Counted from the first letter of the stretch, positions 7,270-14,225 are shown. The stretch is 64,000 bases of DNA from an uncultured Armatimonadetes bacterium (GCA_963716175.1 OY970296.1:2112001-2176000), one strand, 5' to 3'. Made by a program: numbers and translations. Notes: generated by a model from the sequence alone, not told the origin.

Positions 7270-8031
7270 CTAGAGCGTCCGCCACCCAGGTCCACTCTCG
7301 TGGAAGACCACCTTGAGGCCCGGATAGCCCTCTCTGAGCATCGCCGCGAACCGCCGCAGTCCCAGGTTCTCGCAGGCCGCATGGCTGGTCTCGATCAGCG
7401 CCAGGCCCGCGTCCTCGGCGAAGCGCATCGCGTACTCGTCGGTCTCGCCGCAGATCCCGGCCTCCGCGCCGTTCTCGACGAGCCGCTCCATGAAACCGAT
7501 GTTGACGAACAGGCCCAGCCCTCCCCATGGCAGGCCGACCCGAGTCACCTGGCGCTCCGGATCTCCAGTCACGCGTACCACCGGCATGCCAGTGACCTGC
7601 TTGGCCCGCTCGGCAAGCGCTGCCAGCCGCGTCGGCGGCAGGGAGAACACACGGGCGAATCCCTGGCCGGAGTGGACCGCGTCCAGGCCGAGCGCGGCCG
7701 CGAACTCCTCGAAGATGCACAGCCGATCCAGCTTGCCGTGGGCGCGGTAGATGGCCATGCCGCCTTCGTGCATGAGCTGCATGCGGAGGCGATTCGTGCG
7801 CCAGCACCGCTCGCCATCAATGGGGGCCGACTGGGGGAAGAACAGGGTCTCGTGGCAGATCACCAGATTGCAGCGCTCCGCGAGCGCTTGCTCCAGCGCG
7901 GCCACGGTCGGCATCCAGCAGACGAGCACTGCAGTCACATCGGCCTCCGAGTCGCCGAGCTTGAAGCCCTCCTCAGACCCTGTCTCCGGCTCCCGCTCCT
8001 CCAACCATGCCATCACTTCGCGTGCCTTCAT
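7270..8031 (-). CDS. Nif3-like dinuclear metal centre protein
   Basis: NLVICHE, YRAHGKLD, ICGE, ETSHAACE motifs. GGAG RBS before ATG 8031. Confidence 0.88.
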   Translation of the reverse strand: MKAREVMAWLEEREPETGSEEGFKLGDSEADVTAVLVCWMPTVAALEQALAERCNLVICHETLFFPQSAPIDGERCWRTNRLRMQLMHEGGMAIYRAHGKLDRLCIFEEFAAALGLDAVHSGQGFARVFSLPPTRLAALAERAKQVTGMPVVRVTGDPERQVTRVGLPWGGLGLFVNIGFMERLVENGAEAGICGETDEYAMRFAEDAGLALIETSHAACENLGLRRFAAMLREGYPGLKVVFHESGPGWRTL

Positions 8032-8269
8032 CTCCGCTCCTCCGAGCCAGTGCCGGGCGACGCCTGGCTGCCCCCTTCCCAGCCCGGGGCTGCCGGTGAG
8101 GTCTGTTTCCGCCCGGCCAGACCGTCCCCTCCCGCGCGCACGAAGCAGGCGGCGGTGTTCGCAGGCGCGAATCGCGATCAGAGTTGGCGCGATCGCGGCA
8201 GGGATGAAGTCCAGGCCGGCGAAACCCGTTGCAGATCCGCACCCTGATCGCGCGCCGGGAACGCTACCG

Positions 8270-8304
8270 GTGCTACTCTGCGAAGTAGCTTCGCTACGTA
8301 GCAC
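8270..8304. repeat. Palindromic REP-like element at left edge of accessory island
   Basis: GTGCTAC...CGAAG-TAG-CTTCG...GTAGCAC nested inverted repeat. Confidence 0.5.
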
Positions 8305-8448
8305 GAGAGGCCGAGGGGGCAGTGCGAAGATACAGAGACAGGAACGCCGGAGGTGTAGCTTACCTCAGGCCCCTTCTTGTGTCAGTCACGCTGGCGATCT
8401 ACACCTATATGATACGCCGATTGCGACAGGTGCCTGAATGAGGATTCG

Positions 8449-9594
8449 ATGACGAAGGCTCACGCGCGAGTGACTGTTCTCGTTCTAGCCTGGATGGCTG
8501 CACTGCTGGGGACTGTCGGCTGCGGCGCTTGGCGCTCTGGCGAACGGGACAGCAGCCTTCTCCAGCGGGAGACGCTCCGCTATGGTACCTACCCAACCTG
8601 GTCAGCAGATGCCCGGAGAGCGGCCGTCCTGGGGAGAGGAGGAGATGGCTACTACGTGGTCCTCTTGGATGCCTCGACAGAGAAGCCCAAGGTAGTCGCA
8701 CGTCGGCCGATCCCTGGCAACGAACCTCCAAGCATATACTCCGCACTGGATGCGACCGGAGCCACGTTGTACTACATTGTCAAGCGAGGAGCGGAGCCGC
8801 ACATACTGAGCATGTGTCTTGCCACCGGCGACGTGAGAGACGTTGTGCGCGGCGTTGACCCGACTCCAAGCCCCGCAGGGCGCGATGTGGCATACGTGTA
8901 CGCGGCTTCGCACGATCTCGCAGAGGGGCTCGCCCTGTATCTTATGCACGAAGATGGGCGCAACGAGAGACTGACCTCTCAGCTTTTCGTGGAGCGATTG
9001 GTCACCTGGTCTCCGGACTCGAAGTGGCTCACTTGCCTGGCGAAGCGGATCGAATCGCCTCGGTATCCAGCCGCTCCGGAGTCTCTCATGTTGGTGTCAT
9101 TGGACTCCACGGCTCCAGAGCAGATCGAAGTGGGGAGGGGAATTGGCGAAGCGTACTGGGCCGTGGGATGGCGTAATCCAAACACCCTCGTATTCATCGC
9201 CTCCAAGGCTGATGCGAATCGGCAGAGCGTGTGGGGGGTCCTGTCCTATGACGTCCGAACCGGTAAGCGCGGCGAGATAGTCCCATTCGGAAGGATGCAT
9301 ATGTCGTTCTCGTCAGTCCAGGTATCCCATGACGCGACGATCGGCCTGTGGCAAGTTTCCGACAACGACAACCGCGCCTTTCGTGTGGCGGACCTGGACA
9401 CAGGTGATTCGGCTGAGGTCCGATTCCCTGAGGGTGTGCATAGCAGCCTATCGCCGAACGGTACGAGCATCCTCGCAGTAGGTCTGGACACGGGATCGGT
9501 TTTCTATGCTCACGGACGGATTCCCGAGAAGACGTGGGACGTGGAGAAGCTCTTGGCCGGAACCGCCGGAGGCGAGACTAGGCCTCGCGAGTAG
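8449..9594 (+). CDS. Exported TolB/PD40-like beta-propeller protein, possible lipoprotein (candidate immunity protein)
   Basis: Hydrophobic N-terminus ending TVGC (lipobox-like). Repeated PTWSAD, PTPSPAG, TWSPDS, VSHD, LSPNG blade motifs. GAGG RBS. Confidence 0.7.
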   Translation: MTKAHARVTVLVLAWMAALLGTVGCGAWRSGERDSSLLQRETLRYGTYPTWSADARRAAVLGRGGDGYYVVLLDASTEKPKVVARRPIPGNEPPSIYSALDATGATLYYIVKRGAEPHILSMCLATGDVRDVVRGVDPTPSPAGRDVAYVYAASHDLAEGLALYLMHEDGRNERLTSQLFVERLVTWSPDSKWLTCLAKRIESPRYPAAPESLMLVSLDSTAPEQIEVGRGIGEAYWAVGWRNPNTLVFIASKADANRQSVWGVLSYDVRTGKRGEIVPFGRMHMSFSSVQVSHDATIGLWQVSDNDNRAFRVADLDTGDSAEVRFPEGVHSSLSPNGTSILAVGLDTGSVFYAHGRIPEKTWDVEKLLAGTAGGETRPRE

Positions 9595-9609
9595 GGAAGG
9601 AATCTGGTC

Positions 9610-11083
9610 TTGCCCGCAAGAACGGATGCAGGTGGTGTTAGCGTGAGTTGCGGCGCTGTGGGCGCTACCGTACGCGGTGGCCGCTCGCCGCAGGTGGCGG
9701 ACTGCGGGGGCGGATGGACATGCGTGTGCATGGGACCCAGGCCAAGCGCCGGGCCAGGGGCTCCGGCGGGCCGGCGCATCGAGGTCTGGGCCGACCCGAA
9801 GAGCTGCGACTGCGAGAAGCCTGGCGATCCCTGCACCTGCCAGATGCACGAGCGAGCCTGGCAGGACAGCCAGCTACTGAAAGACGCGCAGTGGGAGGCT
9901 GGGGGCACGTGCCAGAAGGCCGGGGCCGCGGGCGGAGGAGGGGGCGGCGGCGCGGGTGGTGGCGGTGGTGGTATGGGCGGCGGTGGGGGCATGATGGGTG
10001 GTGGAGGGGGCATGGGAGCAGGTGCAGGTGGAGGGGGCGGTGGCGGGGGAACTGGCACGGGTGGCCGAGGGACTGGTGGTGGAGGCGGCTCGGGCGGCTG
10101 TCTGCCAAAGTCCGGGTGTAGACACGAGCAACACAGCGATGGCTGGTATGTGAGATGTCGCTGCAACGAGGGGGATAAGCGGTCGTGGCAATGCCTGTGC
10201 CCACATCCTGAAGACTGGATCAGCCCGGGCCAGGGGCGGGGAGGGTGGGCGCTCCCCGCGCTCCCGGAAAGCTGCAATGGCTGCCACGCGGCGGGAGATC
10301 CGTGCACCTGCCATTCTCTGGCTGATCCGCAAGCCGGGGCCGCTGGGCCAAGGACCCCCACACGTGGCCGACGAGAGAATCGTCACCGGTAAGTGCGTGC
10401 TCTGCGGAACAGGAGGTGGAGGAGGCGGAGGTGGCGGAGGAGGCGGAGAGGGAGGCGGGGCGGCATGTCCTCGTGCTCATGGCGAGGAGGAGTTCAAGCT
10501 AGGGCCCGGCGCGTCATGGACGGCGTGGTGGAAGTTCAGCAACGCTATCCGCCCATATCACCGTGCGCACTTGTCTTGGCCTGAGGGCCCGACGGTGCCT
10601 TTGGAGGACTGCTGGAACATGGACCTCCTGGCGGCCATGAACAGCTTCATTGAGCTCAACTGCAATCGCTTCCTCCAGAACGCTGTTGCGTTTATCGAGA
10701 ACCAACTGCAGCCTGGCCAGGCGCGCAACATACTCTCCATTGAGGCCGGAACTGGCCTGAACTGGCACACTGTGGGCAAGTGCTCAGGCTGGTTATTCAA
10801 CAACCAGCTCGGCAACAGCCTGCTCTTCGGTAGAGGATGTGCAAAGCTCACGGACGCGGGGTTTACCTTCGACTTCGTCTGGAATCTGGAGGACACATGG
10901 AAAGCGTTCGGGGGGTGGGAAGCGCTTCCCAACATCAGCTTCTTTGTCGATGCCAGGAAGCGCTGGACCTTTCATTGGCAGCGGGGCAAGTTCGGGGACC
11001 AGAGGTGCACCTTCGATCCTCCGCCGGCAACTACGTGCTACCCCACGTGTGATCCTGGGAGGCAGGCCAATTGCAGTATGTGA
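9610..11083 (+). CDS. Poly-Gly-linked Cys-rich repeat protein with unique C-terminal domain (one frameshift near 10315; candidate polymorphic toxin cassette)
   Basis: ORFs 9610-10392 and 10277-11083 join by removing one T at CATTCTC (10312-10318), giving Cys module A / Gly / module B / Gly / ~200-aa C-terminal domain. Start codon uncertain. Confidence 0.6.
9960..10035 (+). repeat. Direct repeat (Gly/Met linker), copy 1; copy 2 at 12334-12409
   Basis: 52 bp (9960-10011) identical to 12334-12385 and near-identical beyond. Encodes GGGGMGGGGGMMGGGGG. Confidence 0.9.
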
Positions 11084-12051
11084 GGCAGCAAGTCTCGCGG
11101 GCATTAGTGCAGTGCGGGGCTGCGGCTGCGGCACTGGCTGGAACCATCGTGGCAGCTCGGTACTTGGCTACCGGGAGCTGGGCTCCAAGAAGTCCCTGGG
11201 GTGTAGGGTCATTTCTGGTTGCGGAGCTCTTTCTGGCTCCGCTCGGCGGGTTGCTTGTGGCCGGCGGCGCGCTATGGCGCCTGTTTGGGAGCCGCGGGAG
11301 CAGAGGCCCGACGAGGGATAATGACGCGGACTCCGTGCGACGTACCATTCTACTGGTCGTAACGGTCATTGTAGCGTTGCTGTCTGCGCTGCTTTTTGCG
11401 GGAGCGCCTTACTTCGTCTCGGCGCCAGTGAATCCTGTGGTGCTGAGCTTGATGCTCGGCTTGGCAGCTTCCCTCTTCAGCGGTCTTGCGCTAGGTCTCA
11501 TCCTGCAGTGTAGGGAGGGCCATCGTGCCGGTTTTGGTGGCCTTGTGGCGGCGGCGACAGTCACAGGCGCGCTGCTCCCCCCAATGATCGTGGCACTTCT
11601 CGTAGCGAGAACTGCATTTCCATCAGCGTCACGTGCGTTCGAGTGGGGGCGGTATGGGTTCCGGCCTGCGGTGCAACTTAGGGACTTGGGCCCCATCACG
11701 CACAAGCTGAGGATGCGTTTCCCTCCAGGAACACGTGTTGCAGGAGGCGAGTTCATCGCTGGCCCAGGGGAGCATCTGTTCGGGAAAATCGAGATCCCAG
11801 CCGCGAGTATACGGCAGTTCCTGAATGGCCAGTCGTTCCAGTGGGGCTTCGCGCGCAAGGCGGCCGACGTTACCATGAATCTGCGTCCCGAGGTCCTGCG
11901 CGGCATCGCGGGTAAGACTCAGGTTGTCTACGCCGGAGCCAACACGCCGAGAGACACAGATTTGCTGTGGGTCGTGCTGTGCAGCGACAAGGGTAATGCG
12001 GTCCTGACGTACCTATGCTGGTGCCGAACAGACGAGGAGGCCGTGTGGTGA
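11071..12051 (+). CDS. Multi-pass membrane protein with soluble C-terminal domain (candidate immunity protein)
   Basis: About 5 hydrophobic segments followed by ~130 aa polar domain. Start overlaps the stop of the preceding ORF. Confidence 0.6.
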   Translation: MQYVRQQVSRALVQCGAAAAALAGTIVAARYLATGSWAPRSPWGVGSFLVAELFLAPLGGLLVAGGALWRLFGSRGSRGPTRDNDADSVRRTILLVVTVIVALLSALLFAGAPYFVSAPVNPVVLSLMLGLAASLFSGLALGLILQCREGHRAGFGGLVAAATVTGALLPPMIVALLVARTAFPSASRAFEWGRYGFRPAVQLRDLGPITHKLRMRFPPGTRVAGGEFIAGPGEHLFGKIEIPAASIRQFLNGQSFQWGFARKAADVTMNLRPEVLRGIAGKTQVVYAGANTPRDTDLLWVVLCSDKGNAVLTYLCWCRTDEEAVW

Positions 12052-12253
12052 CGGCGGCGCCGAGAAAGAGACGAGCTGCTGTTCGACCGAGAGGGCCTGT
12101 GTGGGCATGGGCAGACCTACTGTTCTCGCGGGGACCGGCAACCGTGGGAGACAGTAAGTCGGAGCTGGACACGGCCAGAGCGGCGCGATCACCGCTGACA
12201 AAGAGAACTCGCCCTTCGTCGGAGGCGGTGGGAGCGCGACTGCCGGAGAGGCG

Positions 12254-13194
12254 GTGGTGACCGCAGTGGTGGCGCAAGCCGGGCCATATGCGAGCCTGGG
12301 GCAGGGCGCTGGCATGGGCAGCGGCGGGATGTATGGCGGTGGTGGTATGGGCGGCGGTGGGGGCATGATGGGTGGTGGAGGGGGCCTGGGAGGAGGTGCA
12401 GGTGGAGGAGGTGGAGCAGGCGGTGGTGGCATGGGTGTTGACACGGGCGGAGGAGCAGGGGCCGGGGCTGATGGGGCCGGCGGGGGAGGCGCGGGTGGTC
12501 AGTGGCACGGGAATCTTAGCGTTCCTCCCTGGGCGGAAGGGTGCGGCTGGCCGAATGGACTGGTGGTGTGCCGGTGTCTGGACAGCGACGATTGGCTGTG
12601 CGTGGCCCGCAGCAAGGTGGGACCTCCCAGGGTGGGACCGGTTGGAGTCGCCCTGGGGATTCACAAGCAGAACTGGGTGGACAACCTGTTCTGCTCCTGC
12701 CGGGGCGAGGGCGACCTGTGCTGGGGGACCGAGCACCAGCGGGTGATCCAGGGGGGCAAGATCCTGAAGAACCGGAGCGAGCCGTTCGTGGGGCGGTGTG
12801 TGCGGCGCAGCACCTGGAGGCAAGGCGGCTGGGGCGGGGGCGCGGGCGGAGGGGGAGGTGCCGGTGGAGGGCGTGGCGCAGGTGGAGGTGGTGGCTTCGC
12901 CGGCGGAGGTGGAGGTGGCGGGGGCGGGGGTGGTGGCGGCGCAGGTGCGGGTGGAGGGGCAGGTGGCGGCGGAGGCGGGGGAGGTGCGTGTGTCTGGGGC
13001 CCAGGCCCAGCCCGGGGCCGGGGGCTCCGCCGAACGTGCGCTTCGAGATCTGGGCTGACCCGAAGAGCTGCGACTGCGAGAAGCCCGGCGACCCCTGCAC
13101 TTGCCAGGTGCACTGGCGGGTCTGGCAGGGCCAGCAGAAGATCAAAGATGCCCAGTGGGAGGCGCAGGGGCAGCGAGCCCTCTGGTCATGCTGA
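12254..13194 (+). pseudogene. Second poly-Gly / Cys-rich repeat ORF remnant, truncated by palindromic element
   Basis: Gly linker, module C, Gly linker, then module A' in another frame (shift near 12982). Homology to module A stops at about 13173, just before a REP-like element. Confidence 0.6.
12985..13164 (+). repeat. Diverged direct repeat of 9721-9900 (Cys module A)
   Basis: Both copies encode WADPKSCDCEKPGDPCTCQ...KDAQWEA, with many synonymous differences. Confidence 0.9.
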
Positions 13195-13312
13195 GCCCTT
13201 CGACTGCGCTCAGGGTGAACTCCGCGAAGCATCCCGTCTTCGGTGTCTGTGGAAATGCCGTGATCCCTTCGCTGCACTCAGGGCAGGCCCTTCGAGTACG
13301 CCTCAGGATGAC
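13185..13312. repeat. REP/MITE-like element with GTCAT(G/C)CTGAG terminal inverted repeats
   Basis: GTCATGCTGAG...CTCAGGATGAC ends with internal CCCTTCG...CTCAGGG hairpins. Half copy GGATCCTTCGCTCCGCTCAGGATGAC at 25681-25706. Confidence 0.75.
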
Positions 13313-13361
13313 AGACAACGCAAACCAAGACTTCGCGGTCATACCCCGGGTTGTTCGCGGT

Positions 13362-13390
13362 TTGACACAGGCCCGCTCCTCTGCTATATT
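13362..13390 (+). promoter_or_regulatory. Sigma70 promoter
   Basis: TTGACA-17 nt-TATATT with extended -10 TG. Confidence 0.75.
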
Positions 13391-13520
13391 GCGCTTGCTT
13401 CGACCCTGGCGAGGGGGGAAGCGGAACCCAGTGGGTTCTGGTCGTCAGTGTAGCGTTCTGCTGACGGCGGGTATGGCTGTGCCCGCCCTGCAGCACATCT
13501 CTGTGGCGAGGAGAGACTGG

Positions 13521-14225
13521 ATGAGGAAGGCCCGACTTTCACTGTTGGCCGCCCTGCTGCTGTTGGCAGTGGCGGCGGGGGCGGCGTGGGCCGGGGACAT
13601 TGTCACCGTGCCTACCGCCAACCAACTCAAGGCCGGCGAGGCGGATGTGGCGGCCTATTACATCTCGGTGGACCAGGGAGCGCTGATCGCGCCGCTGCGG
13701 CCTCTCGACATCGAGTTCGTGCGCGCCCAGACGCTCTATGTGGGACTGACCGACCGGGTGGAGCTGGATGTCCACCGGTATGATGTGGACAAGGTCGGCG
13801 CGCAGACCATCTTCAACTCTACTTTCATGATCCAGCCGGAGGATCTGACCCGCCCGATCGTGGTGATCGGCGGCCGCGATCTGTCGCAGGCCTACGGGCA
13901 CGCCTCCTACTTCATCTCCGCGGCCAAGACCCTGAACCCGCCGGTCGGCGGCCCGCCAACAATGCCCATCGTACGCCTTCACCTGAGCGTCGGAACCAAG
14001 GACGAGACGCTCTTCGGCGAGGAGCGGCACGAGGGGCTGTTCGGCGGCGTGCAGATGGTGCTCAAGCCGGTGGACCCGATGCTGGGGCTGATCGTCCTCT
14101 ATGATGGGCAGGACATCATCACCGGCCTCACTGTGGTCCCCGAGCCGGGCTGGCCCACCATCAAGGGCGGCACGTTCGGCGGCCACACCTGGGTCGGCAT
14201 CAGCTACACCTTCAACGCCAAGTAG
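13521..14225 (+). CDS. Secreted, probable outer-membrane beta-barrel protein (YjbH-like)
   Basis: Signal peptide ending AWA, VPTA motif, amphipathic strands, C-terminal GISYTF. AGGAG RBS. Confidence 0.6.
   Translation: MRKARLSLLAALLLLAVAAGAAWAGDIVTVPTANQLKAGEADVAAYYISVDQGALIAPLRPLDIEFVRAQTLYVGLTDRVELDVHRYDVDKVGAQTIFNSTFMIQPEDLTRPIVVIGGRDLSQAYGHASYFISAAKTLNPPVGGPPTMPIVRLHLSVGTKDETLFGEERHEGLFGGVQMVLKPVDPMLGLIVLYDGQDIITGLTVVPEPGWPTIKGGTFGGHTWVGISYTFNAK

Follow-up and report, generated by a model that had tools for sequence, protein, structure and literature searches.

The DNA described here is a stretch of 64,000 nucleotides (nt) from an uncultured Armatimonadetes bacterium (GCA_963716175.1 OY970296.1:2112001-2176000, one strand; hereafter the window), and our subject is a plus-strand array of genes and gene fragments at 8449-13194, which we read as a putative orphan array of Rhs toxin tips and immunity genes. 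Coordinates are window positions unless prefixed with C1, the single 4.56-Mb genome contig, or with the label of a locus (L001, C1:2982001-2993000; L002, C1:2378001-2387000, minus strand; L009, a metagenome contig; L011, a locus in genome G010) or similar. The array consists of five pieces; on one side of it is a minus-strand gene of the NIF3 family (7270-8304, Pfam E=9e-24) and on the other a gene for an exported protein that starts at about 13521 (Table 1). That an array of this kind on one strand is present had already been noticed in a reading of the DNA made from the sequence alone, before any database search (the sequence-only reading).

The Gly/Cys-rich part of the array is broken into four reading-frame pieces, and does not form two long open reading frames (ORFs). 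The sequence-only reading had described a Gly/Cys repeat ORF ending in a unique domain and, further downstream, a second Gly/Cys remnant. Both are present, and the terminal domain of about 205 amino acids (aa) indeed lacks a paralogue in the genome, but the modules of the first ORF lie in frame 1 and the tip in frame 2, and the second remnant is split, with linker, module D and linker in frame 2 and a remnant of module A (A') in frame 1. The first frame-1 ORF is open from 9610 or 9643 and stops at TAA 10390-10392, and frame 2 is open from 10277 (268 codons), with homology to relatives from about 10372 and the tip ORF intact over 232 codons. A' ends at TGA 13192-13194 with nothing behind it, and the junction between A' and the linker before it has two extra bases compared with copy A and with the intact RHS gene discussed below. 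Modules A, B and D can be aligned on a common CxC…CxCxxxGDxC pattern (W.C.C … C.C…GD.C) with three CxC pairs per module, and the Gly linkers are rich in Met. Two internal repeats are far above chance, one of 184 nt (9716-9899 and 12980-13163, 80% identity) and one of 134 nt (9930-10063 and 12304-12437, 82% identity), the latter falling in the linker of the 12254-12985 remnant.

Table 1. Features of the array and of its two edges, in window positions.
Feature	Position	Strand	Basis or remark
37-nt palindromic dispersed repeat, similar to repetitive extragenic palindromes or miniature inverted-repeat elements (REP/MITE-like)	8271-8307	.	19 genome copies; hairpin -19.3 kcal/mol, z = -1.9
Beta-propeller-like lipoprotein, 381 aa	8449-9594	+	Signal peptide, Cys25 in lipobox-like TVGC
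Frame-1 ORF without tip: 16-aa leader, A, linker, B, short tail	9643-10392	+	Frames, homology
Cys module A	9691-9918	+	8 Cys in 76 aa
Poly-Gly/Met linker after module A	9919-10095	+	
Cys module B	10096-10350	+	10 Cys in 85 aa
Tip cassette, frame 2	10372-11083	+	Junction …ERIVTGKCVLCG, poly-Gly linker (10410-10460), 205-aa Cys-rich domain (10466-11083)
Membrane protein, 323 aa	11080-12051	+	Five hydrophobic segments; ~140-aa C-terminal domain predicted outside the cytoplasm
Frame-2 remnant without tip: poly-Gly/Met linker, module D, poly-Gly linker	12254-12985	+	Frames
Cys module D	12494-12820	+	8 Cys in 109 aa
A' (module A remnant), frame 1, out of frame with the linker before it	12982-13194	+	76% aa identity to A
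Two dispersed repeat units abutting or overlapping the A' end, 3' edge of the array	13185-13315	.	

By tblastn against the whole genome, module A recurs at C1:2988525-2988749 (91% aa identity, E=7e-50), inside a 2031-aa RHS/YD-repeat ORF at C1:2983266-2989361 (L001:1266-7361), so that a full-length gene with the module, for which the sequence-only reading had proposed to look, does exist in the assembly. This ORF, referred to below as the parent, matches Pfam RHS_repeat (E=1.9e-120, 22 stretches) and YD_repeat_2x (E=1.7e-93), and residues 1609-1689 match TIGR03696 Rhs_assc_core with 42.8 bits against a cut-off of 32.5. Its core ends in …NPIMIVDPSGMQG (…VDPSGMQG), a DPxG-type motif ahead of a variable C-terminal region, and the order from there on is a Gly-rich linker of about 60 residues, module A, another poly-Gly linker, a tip of 181 aa that is not related to the one in the window, a lipoprotein gene and an Rhs fragment. 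No signal peptide is evident in the parent; a weak Teneurin YD-shell match (E=2.2e-7) and BNR-like repeats in the N-terminal region (E=1.6e-4) are both under cut-off. At the nucleotide level, 9674-9969 aligns with C1:2988505-2988800 over 296 nt at 85.8% identity, with an exact block of 47 nt. The block that the orphan cassette has in common with the full-length gene, just ahead of the variable tip, is the stalk and not the Rhs core. As module A and its linker stand directly behind the Rhs core end of the parent, the Cys module plus Gly linker is, judging from gene order, a predicted pre-toxin stalk of one Rhs lineage and does not define a new delivery family as its conserved part, and the window is most simply seen as an orphan Rhs array rather than a member of an RHS-independent family. 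We give a probability of about 0.75 to this reading, in which 8449-13194 would be an orphan array of Rhs toxin tips and immunity genes some 0.86 Mb from its parent gene. The array appears to us to be in a mixed state, with the immunity genes and one tip cassette kept and the rest present as remnants; one cassette (linker, tip and membrane protein) apparently is whole.

The base composition of the pieces is consistent with this. The sequence-only reading had pointed to more A/T-ending codons in the unique parts, and the G+C content at third codon positions (GC3) bears it out: 0.68 in the lipoprotein, 0.746 in the tip and 0.672 in the membrane protein against 0.84-0.89 in modules A, D and A', with a genome median of 0.79 computed from 2115 ORFs of >=400 aa, a proxy set that includes spurious ORFs. 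Unique genes that are below the genome norm in GC3, together with absence from relatives (0/30 for the lipoprotein, 0/40 for module A), support the idea of orphan cassettes.

The stalk modules have no known family in Pfam or NCBIfam. The AlphaFold2 model of module A (7-row alignment) has five strands, is all-beta and reaches a mean predicted local distance difference test score (pLDDT) of 85.3; Foldseek returned only generic beta-sheet matches for it (E>=0.4, template modelling score <=0.43), and a profile search of the PDB only three designed proteins (E=0.013-0.02). Module A was found in 0/40 genomes of relatives, and a pattern scan of genome contigs for it found none. Among 400 other genomes of the phylum, three were matched by the module profile (A4), of which only G010 is credible, the matches in G316 and G318 having internal stops and E values of 4e-5 to 5e-4. 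Among proteins of 1117-3555 aa, the only one with module A is the RHS protein of the same genome.

Several further Rhs features are found in this genome. A truncated RHS-repeat ORF (L001 35-1255, C1:2981315-2983252, RHS_repeat E=1.5e-70) ends 10 nt before the parent start, a sign of rearrangement at the parent locus too. Another large RHS gene, at 2.865 Mb, contains neither the module nor poly-Gly. In the parent tip (residues ~1850-2031), a …GSHGG… sequence is followed about 60 residues on by …YHCLG…, which we take to be reminiscent of a caspase-like His/Cys dyad, and Pfam assigns no family to it. A tip end related to the parent tip precedes homologous lipoproteins in L002 and L009.

A second orphan array is located at C1:2381.1-2385.3 kb (in L002), in the order core-end fragment (…VDPSGLQG) plus tip, membrane protein, 5'-truncated module A, Rhs fragment, tip end, lipoprotein and module D. 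In the genome tblastn, module A matches C1:2381-2383 kb with 81% and module D with 93% identity; at the nucleotide level, module D of the window is 93.7% identical to C1:2381580-2381204 over 380 nt, which suggests recent copying rather than long neglect. The beta-propeller-like lipoprotein of this second array is 30% identical (E=6e-37) to the lipoprotein after the RHS gene. Relatives also occur outside this genome. L009 contains an RHS gene (Rhs_assc_core 44.8 bits) and tips that are each followed by a lipoprotein or a membrane protein; an orphan tip downstream of the RHS gene is similar to P0005 and 48% identical to the window tip, and a lipoprotein behind a related tip is a homologue of that behind the RHS gene of our genome (E=3e-16). 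In L011, from a member of the same family (G010), an orphan …VRVDPSGMG is followed by a Cys module, a Gly/Pro linker, a Cys-rich tip and then a lipoprotein. A profile search in a collection of 5.8 billion proteins found P0010, from another assembly, of which residues 1-94 are 81% identical to the ORF from GTG 9643; it has a leader MSC.AVGAT… and module A, and then a different Cys-rich tip.

Module A is therefore seen before four different continuations, i.e., the RHS gene's own tip, the window's linker and module B, the degenerate tail of the second array, and the Cys-rich tip of P0010, and the genes that follow the tips differ as well. The proposal in the sequence-only reading that these are exchangeable cassettes with a shared N-terminal homology block is in this respect supported. 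Pfam gave no family at E<=0.1 for any of the 7 tips tested.

Some additional observations concern these loci. Nearly the same coding stretch of ~50 residues, behind …DPSGMQG, is present at both ends of L009 (1-200 and 6750-6896); it may be that a repeat has circularised the contig, or that the contig ends fall inside two Rhs tips with a common Pro-rich linker. A membrane-anchored protein in L002 (5266-6036, minus strand) and an ORF fragment in L009 (3539-3778) both end in …GDNY.FADG.V.W.PRKKL…, an end that we take to resemble the H-x9-DG end of DUF1559 proteins, a label that Pfam does not confirm; for the L002 protein Pfam gave only DUF7139 (E=7.3e-4, under cut-off). Being directly behind a tip, the L002 protein would be another candidate immunity class.

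The tip of the window (10466-11083) has 9 cysteines and is a candidate toxin. Neither the tip nor the membrane protein has a second copy in the genome (tblastn, 4.56-Mb contig). A search for the tip family among 1.84 billion representatives gave 6 matches, namely the gene call of the genome itself, P0005 (53% identity), P0006 (56%), P0007 (52%) and two spurious repeat proteins. Residues invariant across the three distant relatives are kept in the window tip, and P0006 starts with the …RIVTGKCV.CG-polyGly junction that the frame-2 stretch also has, which supports both frame 2 and a cassette boundary there. No family was found for the tip in Pfam or NCBIfam, a PDB profile search gave 0 matches at E<=1, and a search of genome contigs for the tip family found none. 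The AlphaFold2 model of the tip is poor (pLDDT 53.8, 4-row alignment); with it, Foldseek found nothing under E=0.16 in the PDB, and the ESM Atlas yielded no usable match.

The membrane protein overlaps the tip ORF, as had been described before, by 13 nt if it starts at TTG 11071 or by 4 nt (GTGA) if it starts at GTG 11080. Lys and Arg number 9 in the inside loops and 2 in the outside loops, in a topology with the N-terminus inside. It matches no Pfam or NCBIfam family, and besides its own record the only relative is P0002 (42% identity over 44% of the query), the conserved part being the C-terminal domain. From its position and predicted topology, we consider it a candidate for the cognate immunity protein. 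A model of the complex of the tip with the C-terminal domain scored 0.00, run without controls, and neither supports nor opposes binding.

The lipoprotein at the upstream end of the array (8449-9594) has GAGGA 4 nt ahead of its ATG. The sequence-only reading had called it a TolB-like exported protein; it is exported and beta-propeller-like, but its family matches are weak, with Pfam PD40 at E=0.0023 (under cut-off) and TIGR02800 TolB at 26.4 bits against a cut-off of 343.15, over profile positions 240-406 only. The TIGR02800 score, far under the cut-off, rules out the TolB of the Tol-Pal system. A search of 30 class genomes found no relative at E<=1e-5 (0/30). In L001, L002, L009 and L011, the Rhs tips are followed by lipoproteins that resemble it in size and make-up, and lipobox-like sequences are found in all five lipoproteins read (window, L001, L002, L009 and L011). 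By analogy with these, 8449-9594 is probably a candidate orphan immunity protein. Since the Cys-rich tips and modules go together with candidate immunity proteins that are all lipoproteins or outward-facing, we infer that the tips would be toxins acting in the cell envelope and neutralised there.

TAG 9592-9594 separates the lipoprotein ORF from the next Gly/Cys ORF, which is in the same frame. We considered read-through or a nonsense mutation at this codon and rejected both, as homology to the RHS gene begins only at 9674, there is an SD-like (Shine-Dalgarno-like) site with a conserved start between the two ORFs, two variant contigs (X4 and X5) retain the TAG, and sharing a frame is a 1-in-3 chance. 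These two contigs, from two wetland sequencing runs, match the window base for base over 9544-9663 (to 9694 in X4) and have 9-10 differences in 9384-9543, which suggests a recombination boundary near 9544. The leader region of the following ORF is likewise unchanged in the variant contigs.

A number of observations weigh against an orphan Rhs array with a functional cassette. The frame breaks are signs of decay, as is the truncation of A', and a conserved start, leader and SD-like site at 9643 hint at standalone expression. There is no Rhs core fragment in the 64-kb window (tblastn with RHS residues 741-1700, nothing at E<=1), and RHS_repeat matches in the window were 0/40; the absence of an RHS motif noted earlier is thus true of the window, but not of the module family. 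The tip is without a recognisable fold or family. Parent and window array are direct repeats 0.86 Mb apart, and as a simple crossover would lead to loss of the intervening DNA, tips could be exchanged only by way of duplication or gene conversion. The lipoprotein has no detectable homology to the tip-following lipoproteins elsewhere (E=0.52, 0.25), so that its immunity role rests on analogy and position, and no tip remnant was found upstream of it. Finally, what stands behind the relative of the window tip in L009 is a protein of 251 aa with no relationship to the window membrane protein, i.e., the pairing of tip and membrane protein is not conserved in the sole other context seen.

These points can be explained in other ways. 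All toxin pieces could be debris of past Rhs rearrangements, with at most the lipoprotein and the membrane protein maintained. This would account for the two frame breaks, the truncation of A' next to a dispersed repeat, the lack of a core fragment and of a tip start in frame with the stalk, and the direct orientation and distance of the parent, and it would fit the occurrence of further Rhs remnants with short open frames at C1:1331273-1333048 and 910740-911387. We nevertheless regard it as rather unlikely, because the tip frame has stayed open over its 268 codons with the invariant residues in place, the 4-nt overlap with an intact 323-codon gene downstream is preserved, and module D agrees so closely with its copy in the other array. 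If the frame breaks were instead sequencing errors in G/C homopolymers, 9643-11083 would really be one 480-aa ORF and 12254-13194 another. The breaks do lie in or beside CCCCC (10354-10358) and GGGGG (about 12975-12985), and a single 4.56-Mb contig is compatible, as far as we can judge, with a long-read assembly. A 151-nt contig (X2) agrees with the window over 10347-10497, which speaks weakly against an error as it starts 7 nt before the C-run and is maybe from the same sample. The long poly-Gly tracts of the parent are in frame over 2031 codons, which indicates that the assembly copes with such tracts, and the joined ORF would still be without the Rhs delivery part; we therefore consider such errors improbable. 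Sequencing runs matched the window in six DNA rows from 3 studies (<=0.29 of sampled words, no RNA run listed), and their contigs are short, with both frame-break sites effectively uncovered.

A different explanation takes the pieces for genes in their own right, so that independent small Cys/Gly-rich proteins would be made from 9643-10392 and from the tip ORF (with its start at ATG 10277 or further downstream), maybe as a toxin-antitoxin-like pair with the membrane protein. AGGTGG stands 7 nt before GTG 9643, the first residue of P0010 corresponds exactly to this start, and the 16-aa leader that both share (MSCGAVGAT… in the window) is not in the RHS gene; the agreement of X4 and X5 with the window across this start, next to the divergent sequence just upstream, points the same way. 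There is also a precedent in the orphan rhs of Salmonella, which the part of the source available to us treats as a type II toxin-antitoxin module (PMC7043789). On the other hand, the leader is not a signal peptide, 9643-10392 contains stalk modules and no tip, the start of P0010 is a gene caller's choice on a 1562-nt contig, and no sigma-70-like promoter was found in 8100-13350, by a crude scan for what may not be the promoter type of the host. Independent genes hence seem doubtful to us. Least credible by far is the family proposed in the sequence-only reading, in which Cys module plus Gly linker would be the delivery part of novel effectors or adhesins unconnected with Rhs, CdiA and MafB. 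The window does lack RHS, VENN, LXG and Hint signatures, and the modules have no known family or fold, but the sole full-length module protein found is a canonical RHS protein with the module behind its core domain, the relatives in L009 and L011 are also behind Rhs core ends, and the modules have no secretion signal of their own.

The edges of the array do not look like the ends of a mobile unit. The sequence-only reading took palindromic elements to bracket the array; 8271-8307 and 13185-13236 are instead dispersed REP/MITE-like repeats of intergenic DNA (19 and 16 genome copies, respectively) and not ends specific to this locus. The upstream palindrome is inserted in a longer dispersed repeat (8201-8405), of which the two arms (8201-8270 and 8308-8405, ~170 bp) are contiguous at C1:4551473-4551641, i.e., one repeat is nested in another. 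This longer repeat reaches into the 5' end annotated for the long NIF3 ORF, the true start of which is probably close to 8040. One of the copies of 13185-13236 is 100% identical over 49 nt and lies inside the second orphan array (C1:2385453-2385405), and 13255-13315 has 2 copies by blastn-short and further copies of ~85%. NIF3 orthologues in G011 (82%) and G005 (71%) are accompanied by none of the other genes that neighbour NIF3 in the window, over 19 kb and 6.4 kb, respectively, and so speak neither for nor against an insertion. Ahead of the exported protein at ~13521, 13362-13390 is a near-consensus sigma-70-like promoter (TTGACA, 17 nt, TATATT, TG; 11/12), the sole promoter-like site in 8100-13700. 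The minus-strand ORFs 9510-10361, 11870-12823 and 12661-13113 were rejected as genes, being Pro-rich mirror images of the poly-Gly tracts that are prone to mis-calling, and Rfam had no match at E<=0.1 over 7800-13900.

Rhs proteins in general undergo cleavage at the core-end motif, and the C-terminal region set free in this way stays within the YD shell; by analogy, autocleavage may be expected at that motif in the parent as well. The cargo of the parent would then be stalk plus tip, the stalk being made of flexible poly-Gly(/Met) linkers and Cys-rich beta modules of ~75 aa, and the window would hold stalk-plus-tip pieces without the delivery part. The membrane protein, translationally coupled to the tip, would neutralise it by means of its outward-facing C-terminal domain. 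The conserved stalk DNA, including the 47-nt perfect block, may serve as a handle for recombinational exchange of tips, and the array may now be mainly a stock of kept immunity genes together with a silent or decaying reserve of tips. A bolder and, in our estimate, improbable version of this scheme is that the stalk is a new pre-toxin delivery device, in which beta modules locked by disulfides or metal are packed in the YD shell with the tip, fold or oxidise outside, and target or translocate the tip into the envelope of a neighbour, with stalk DNA as the recombination handle and the orphans also expressed by themselves from 9643. If that were true, the standalone stalk-tip proteins would be a second, Rhs-independent use of the same cassettes.

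With respect to delivery, the genome (marker completeness 90.85%) contains 0 matches to PF05943 (VipB) and 0 to PF05488 (PAAR), VgrG and Hcp not having been searched for, and the tips are thus probably not delivered by a type VI secretion system (T6SS). The locus accordingly differs from T6SS-delivered Rhs effectors. Rhs/YD toxins independent of a T6SS are represented by WapA of Bacillus and by teneurin-like YD-shell proteins. Similar to these, the parent is a YD-repeat shell protein with a predicted C-terminal toxin in a genome in which VipB and PAAR were not found; unlike them, it has BNR-like repeats at the N-terminus and no evident signal peptide. None of the four array ORFs has a PT-VENN, DUF1020 or LXG domain (Pfam E<=0.1, NCBIfam E<=0.01), and the array does not belong with the CdiA, MafB or LXG systems.

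Standalone cassettes that replace tips are the defining behaviour of polymorphic toxins, as far as the available text of PMC3482391 describes them, and orphan rhs toxin/immunity modules are known in enterobacteria, e.g., the main rhs and adjacent orphan of Salmonella Typhimurium and the Rhs NADase tips of Serratia (PMC7043789, PMC10539506, in the parts available). Like these, the window array has putative tip and immunity cassettes without a delivery part, a block that also occurs in the full-length gene, more than one kind of tip behind that block, candidate immunity genes directly downstream, and remnants in arrays. Unlike these, its common block is a predicted post-cleavage stalk rather than the Rhs core end, it is distant from the parent and not adjacent to it, RHS repeats and a core fragment are absent from the window, no VipB or PAAR was found in the genome, and the 7 tips tested are without a Pfam family. 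The stalk may also be compared with the pre-toxin (PT) domains of polymorphic toxins, for which the same text gives PT-VENN, PT-HINT, PT-TG and DUF637 (PMC3482391). Both are conserved modules between the delivery or repeat region and the tip that mark a recombination boundary and maybe serve in processing. The stalk modules differ in that module A has a five-strand all-beta model with no PDB match at E<0.4, in that they are very rich in Cys (8-10 each), vary in number and order (A; A+B; D+A') and have long poly-Gly/Met linkers between them, and in that they stand downstream of the Rhs cleavage motif, so that they would travel with the tip. Orphan immunity islets, described in part of PMC10539506 as arrays of immunity genes without cognate effectors, are similar to the window in so far as its lipoprotein and membrane protein are intact and the neighbouring toxin parts fragmentary; unlike the islets, the immunity candidates of the window, a beta-propeller-like lipoprotein and a polytopic membrane protein, are of no described immunity family and are assigned their role by position. 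We found no literature that links Rhs tips to poly-Gly/Cys-rich stalks, with supplements not covered; in the available text of PMC3482391, 'glycine-rich' occurs once and 'disulfide' is absent.

By mechanism and membership, the locus is an Rhs polymorphic toxin system with orphan cassettes, which is a well-described kind. What is new is the Cys-module/poly-Gly stalk, the tips without a known family in a genome that yielded neither a T6SS sheath nor PAAR, the lipoproteins and outward-facing membrane proteins as candidates for immunity, and a distant array without a core fragment. For annotation, these results explain frame-split, start-less Gly/Cys ORFs and antisense poly-Pro phantoms that gene callers mis-handle, and 10466-11083 with 11080-12051 offers a compact candidate toxin/immunity pair for toxin discovery. 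More generally, the Rhs logic of a conserved delivery gene, swappable tips and hoarded immunity genes would also be at work in a poorly studied environmental lineage, where its building blocks include a stalk module with a confident, unmatched model and at least 7 tips of no known family.

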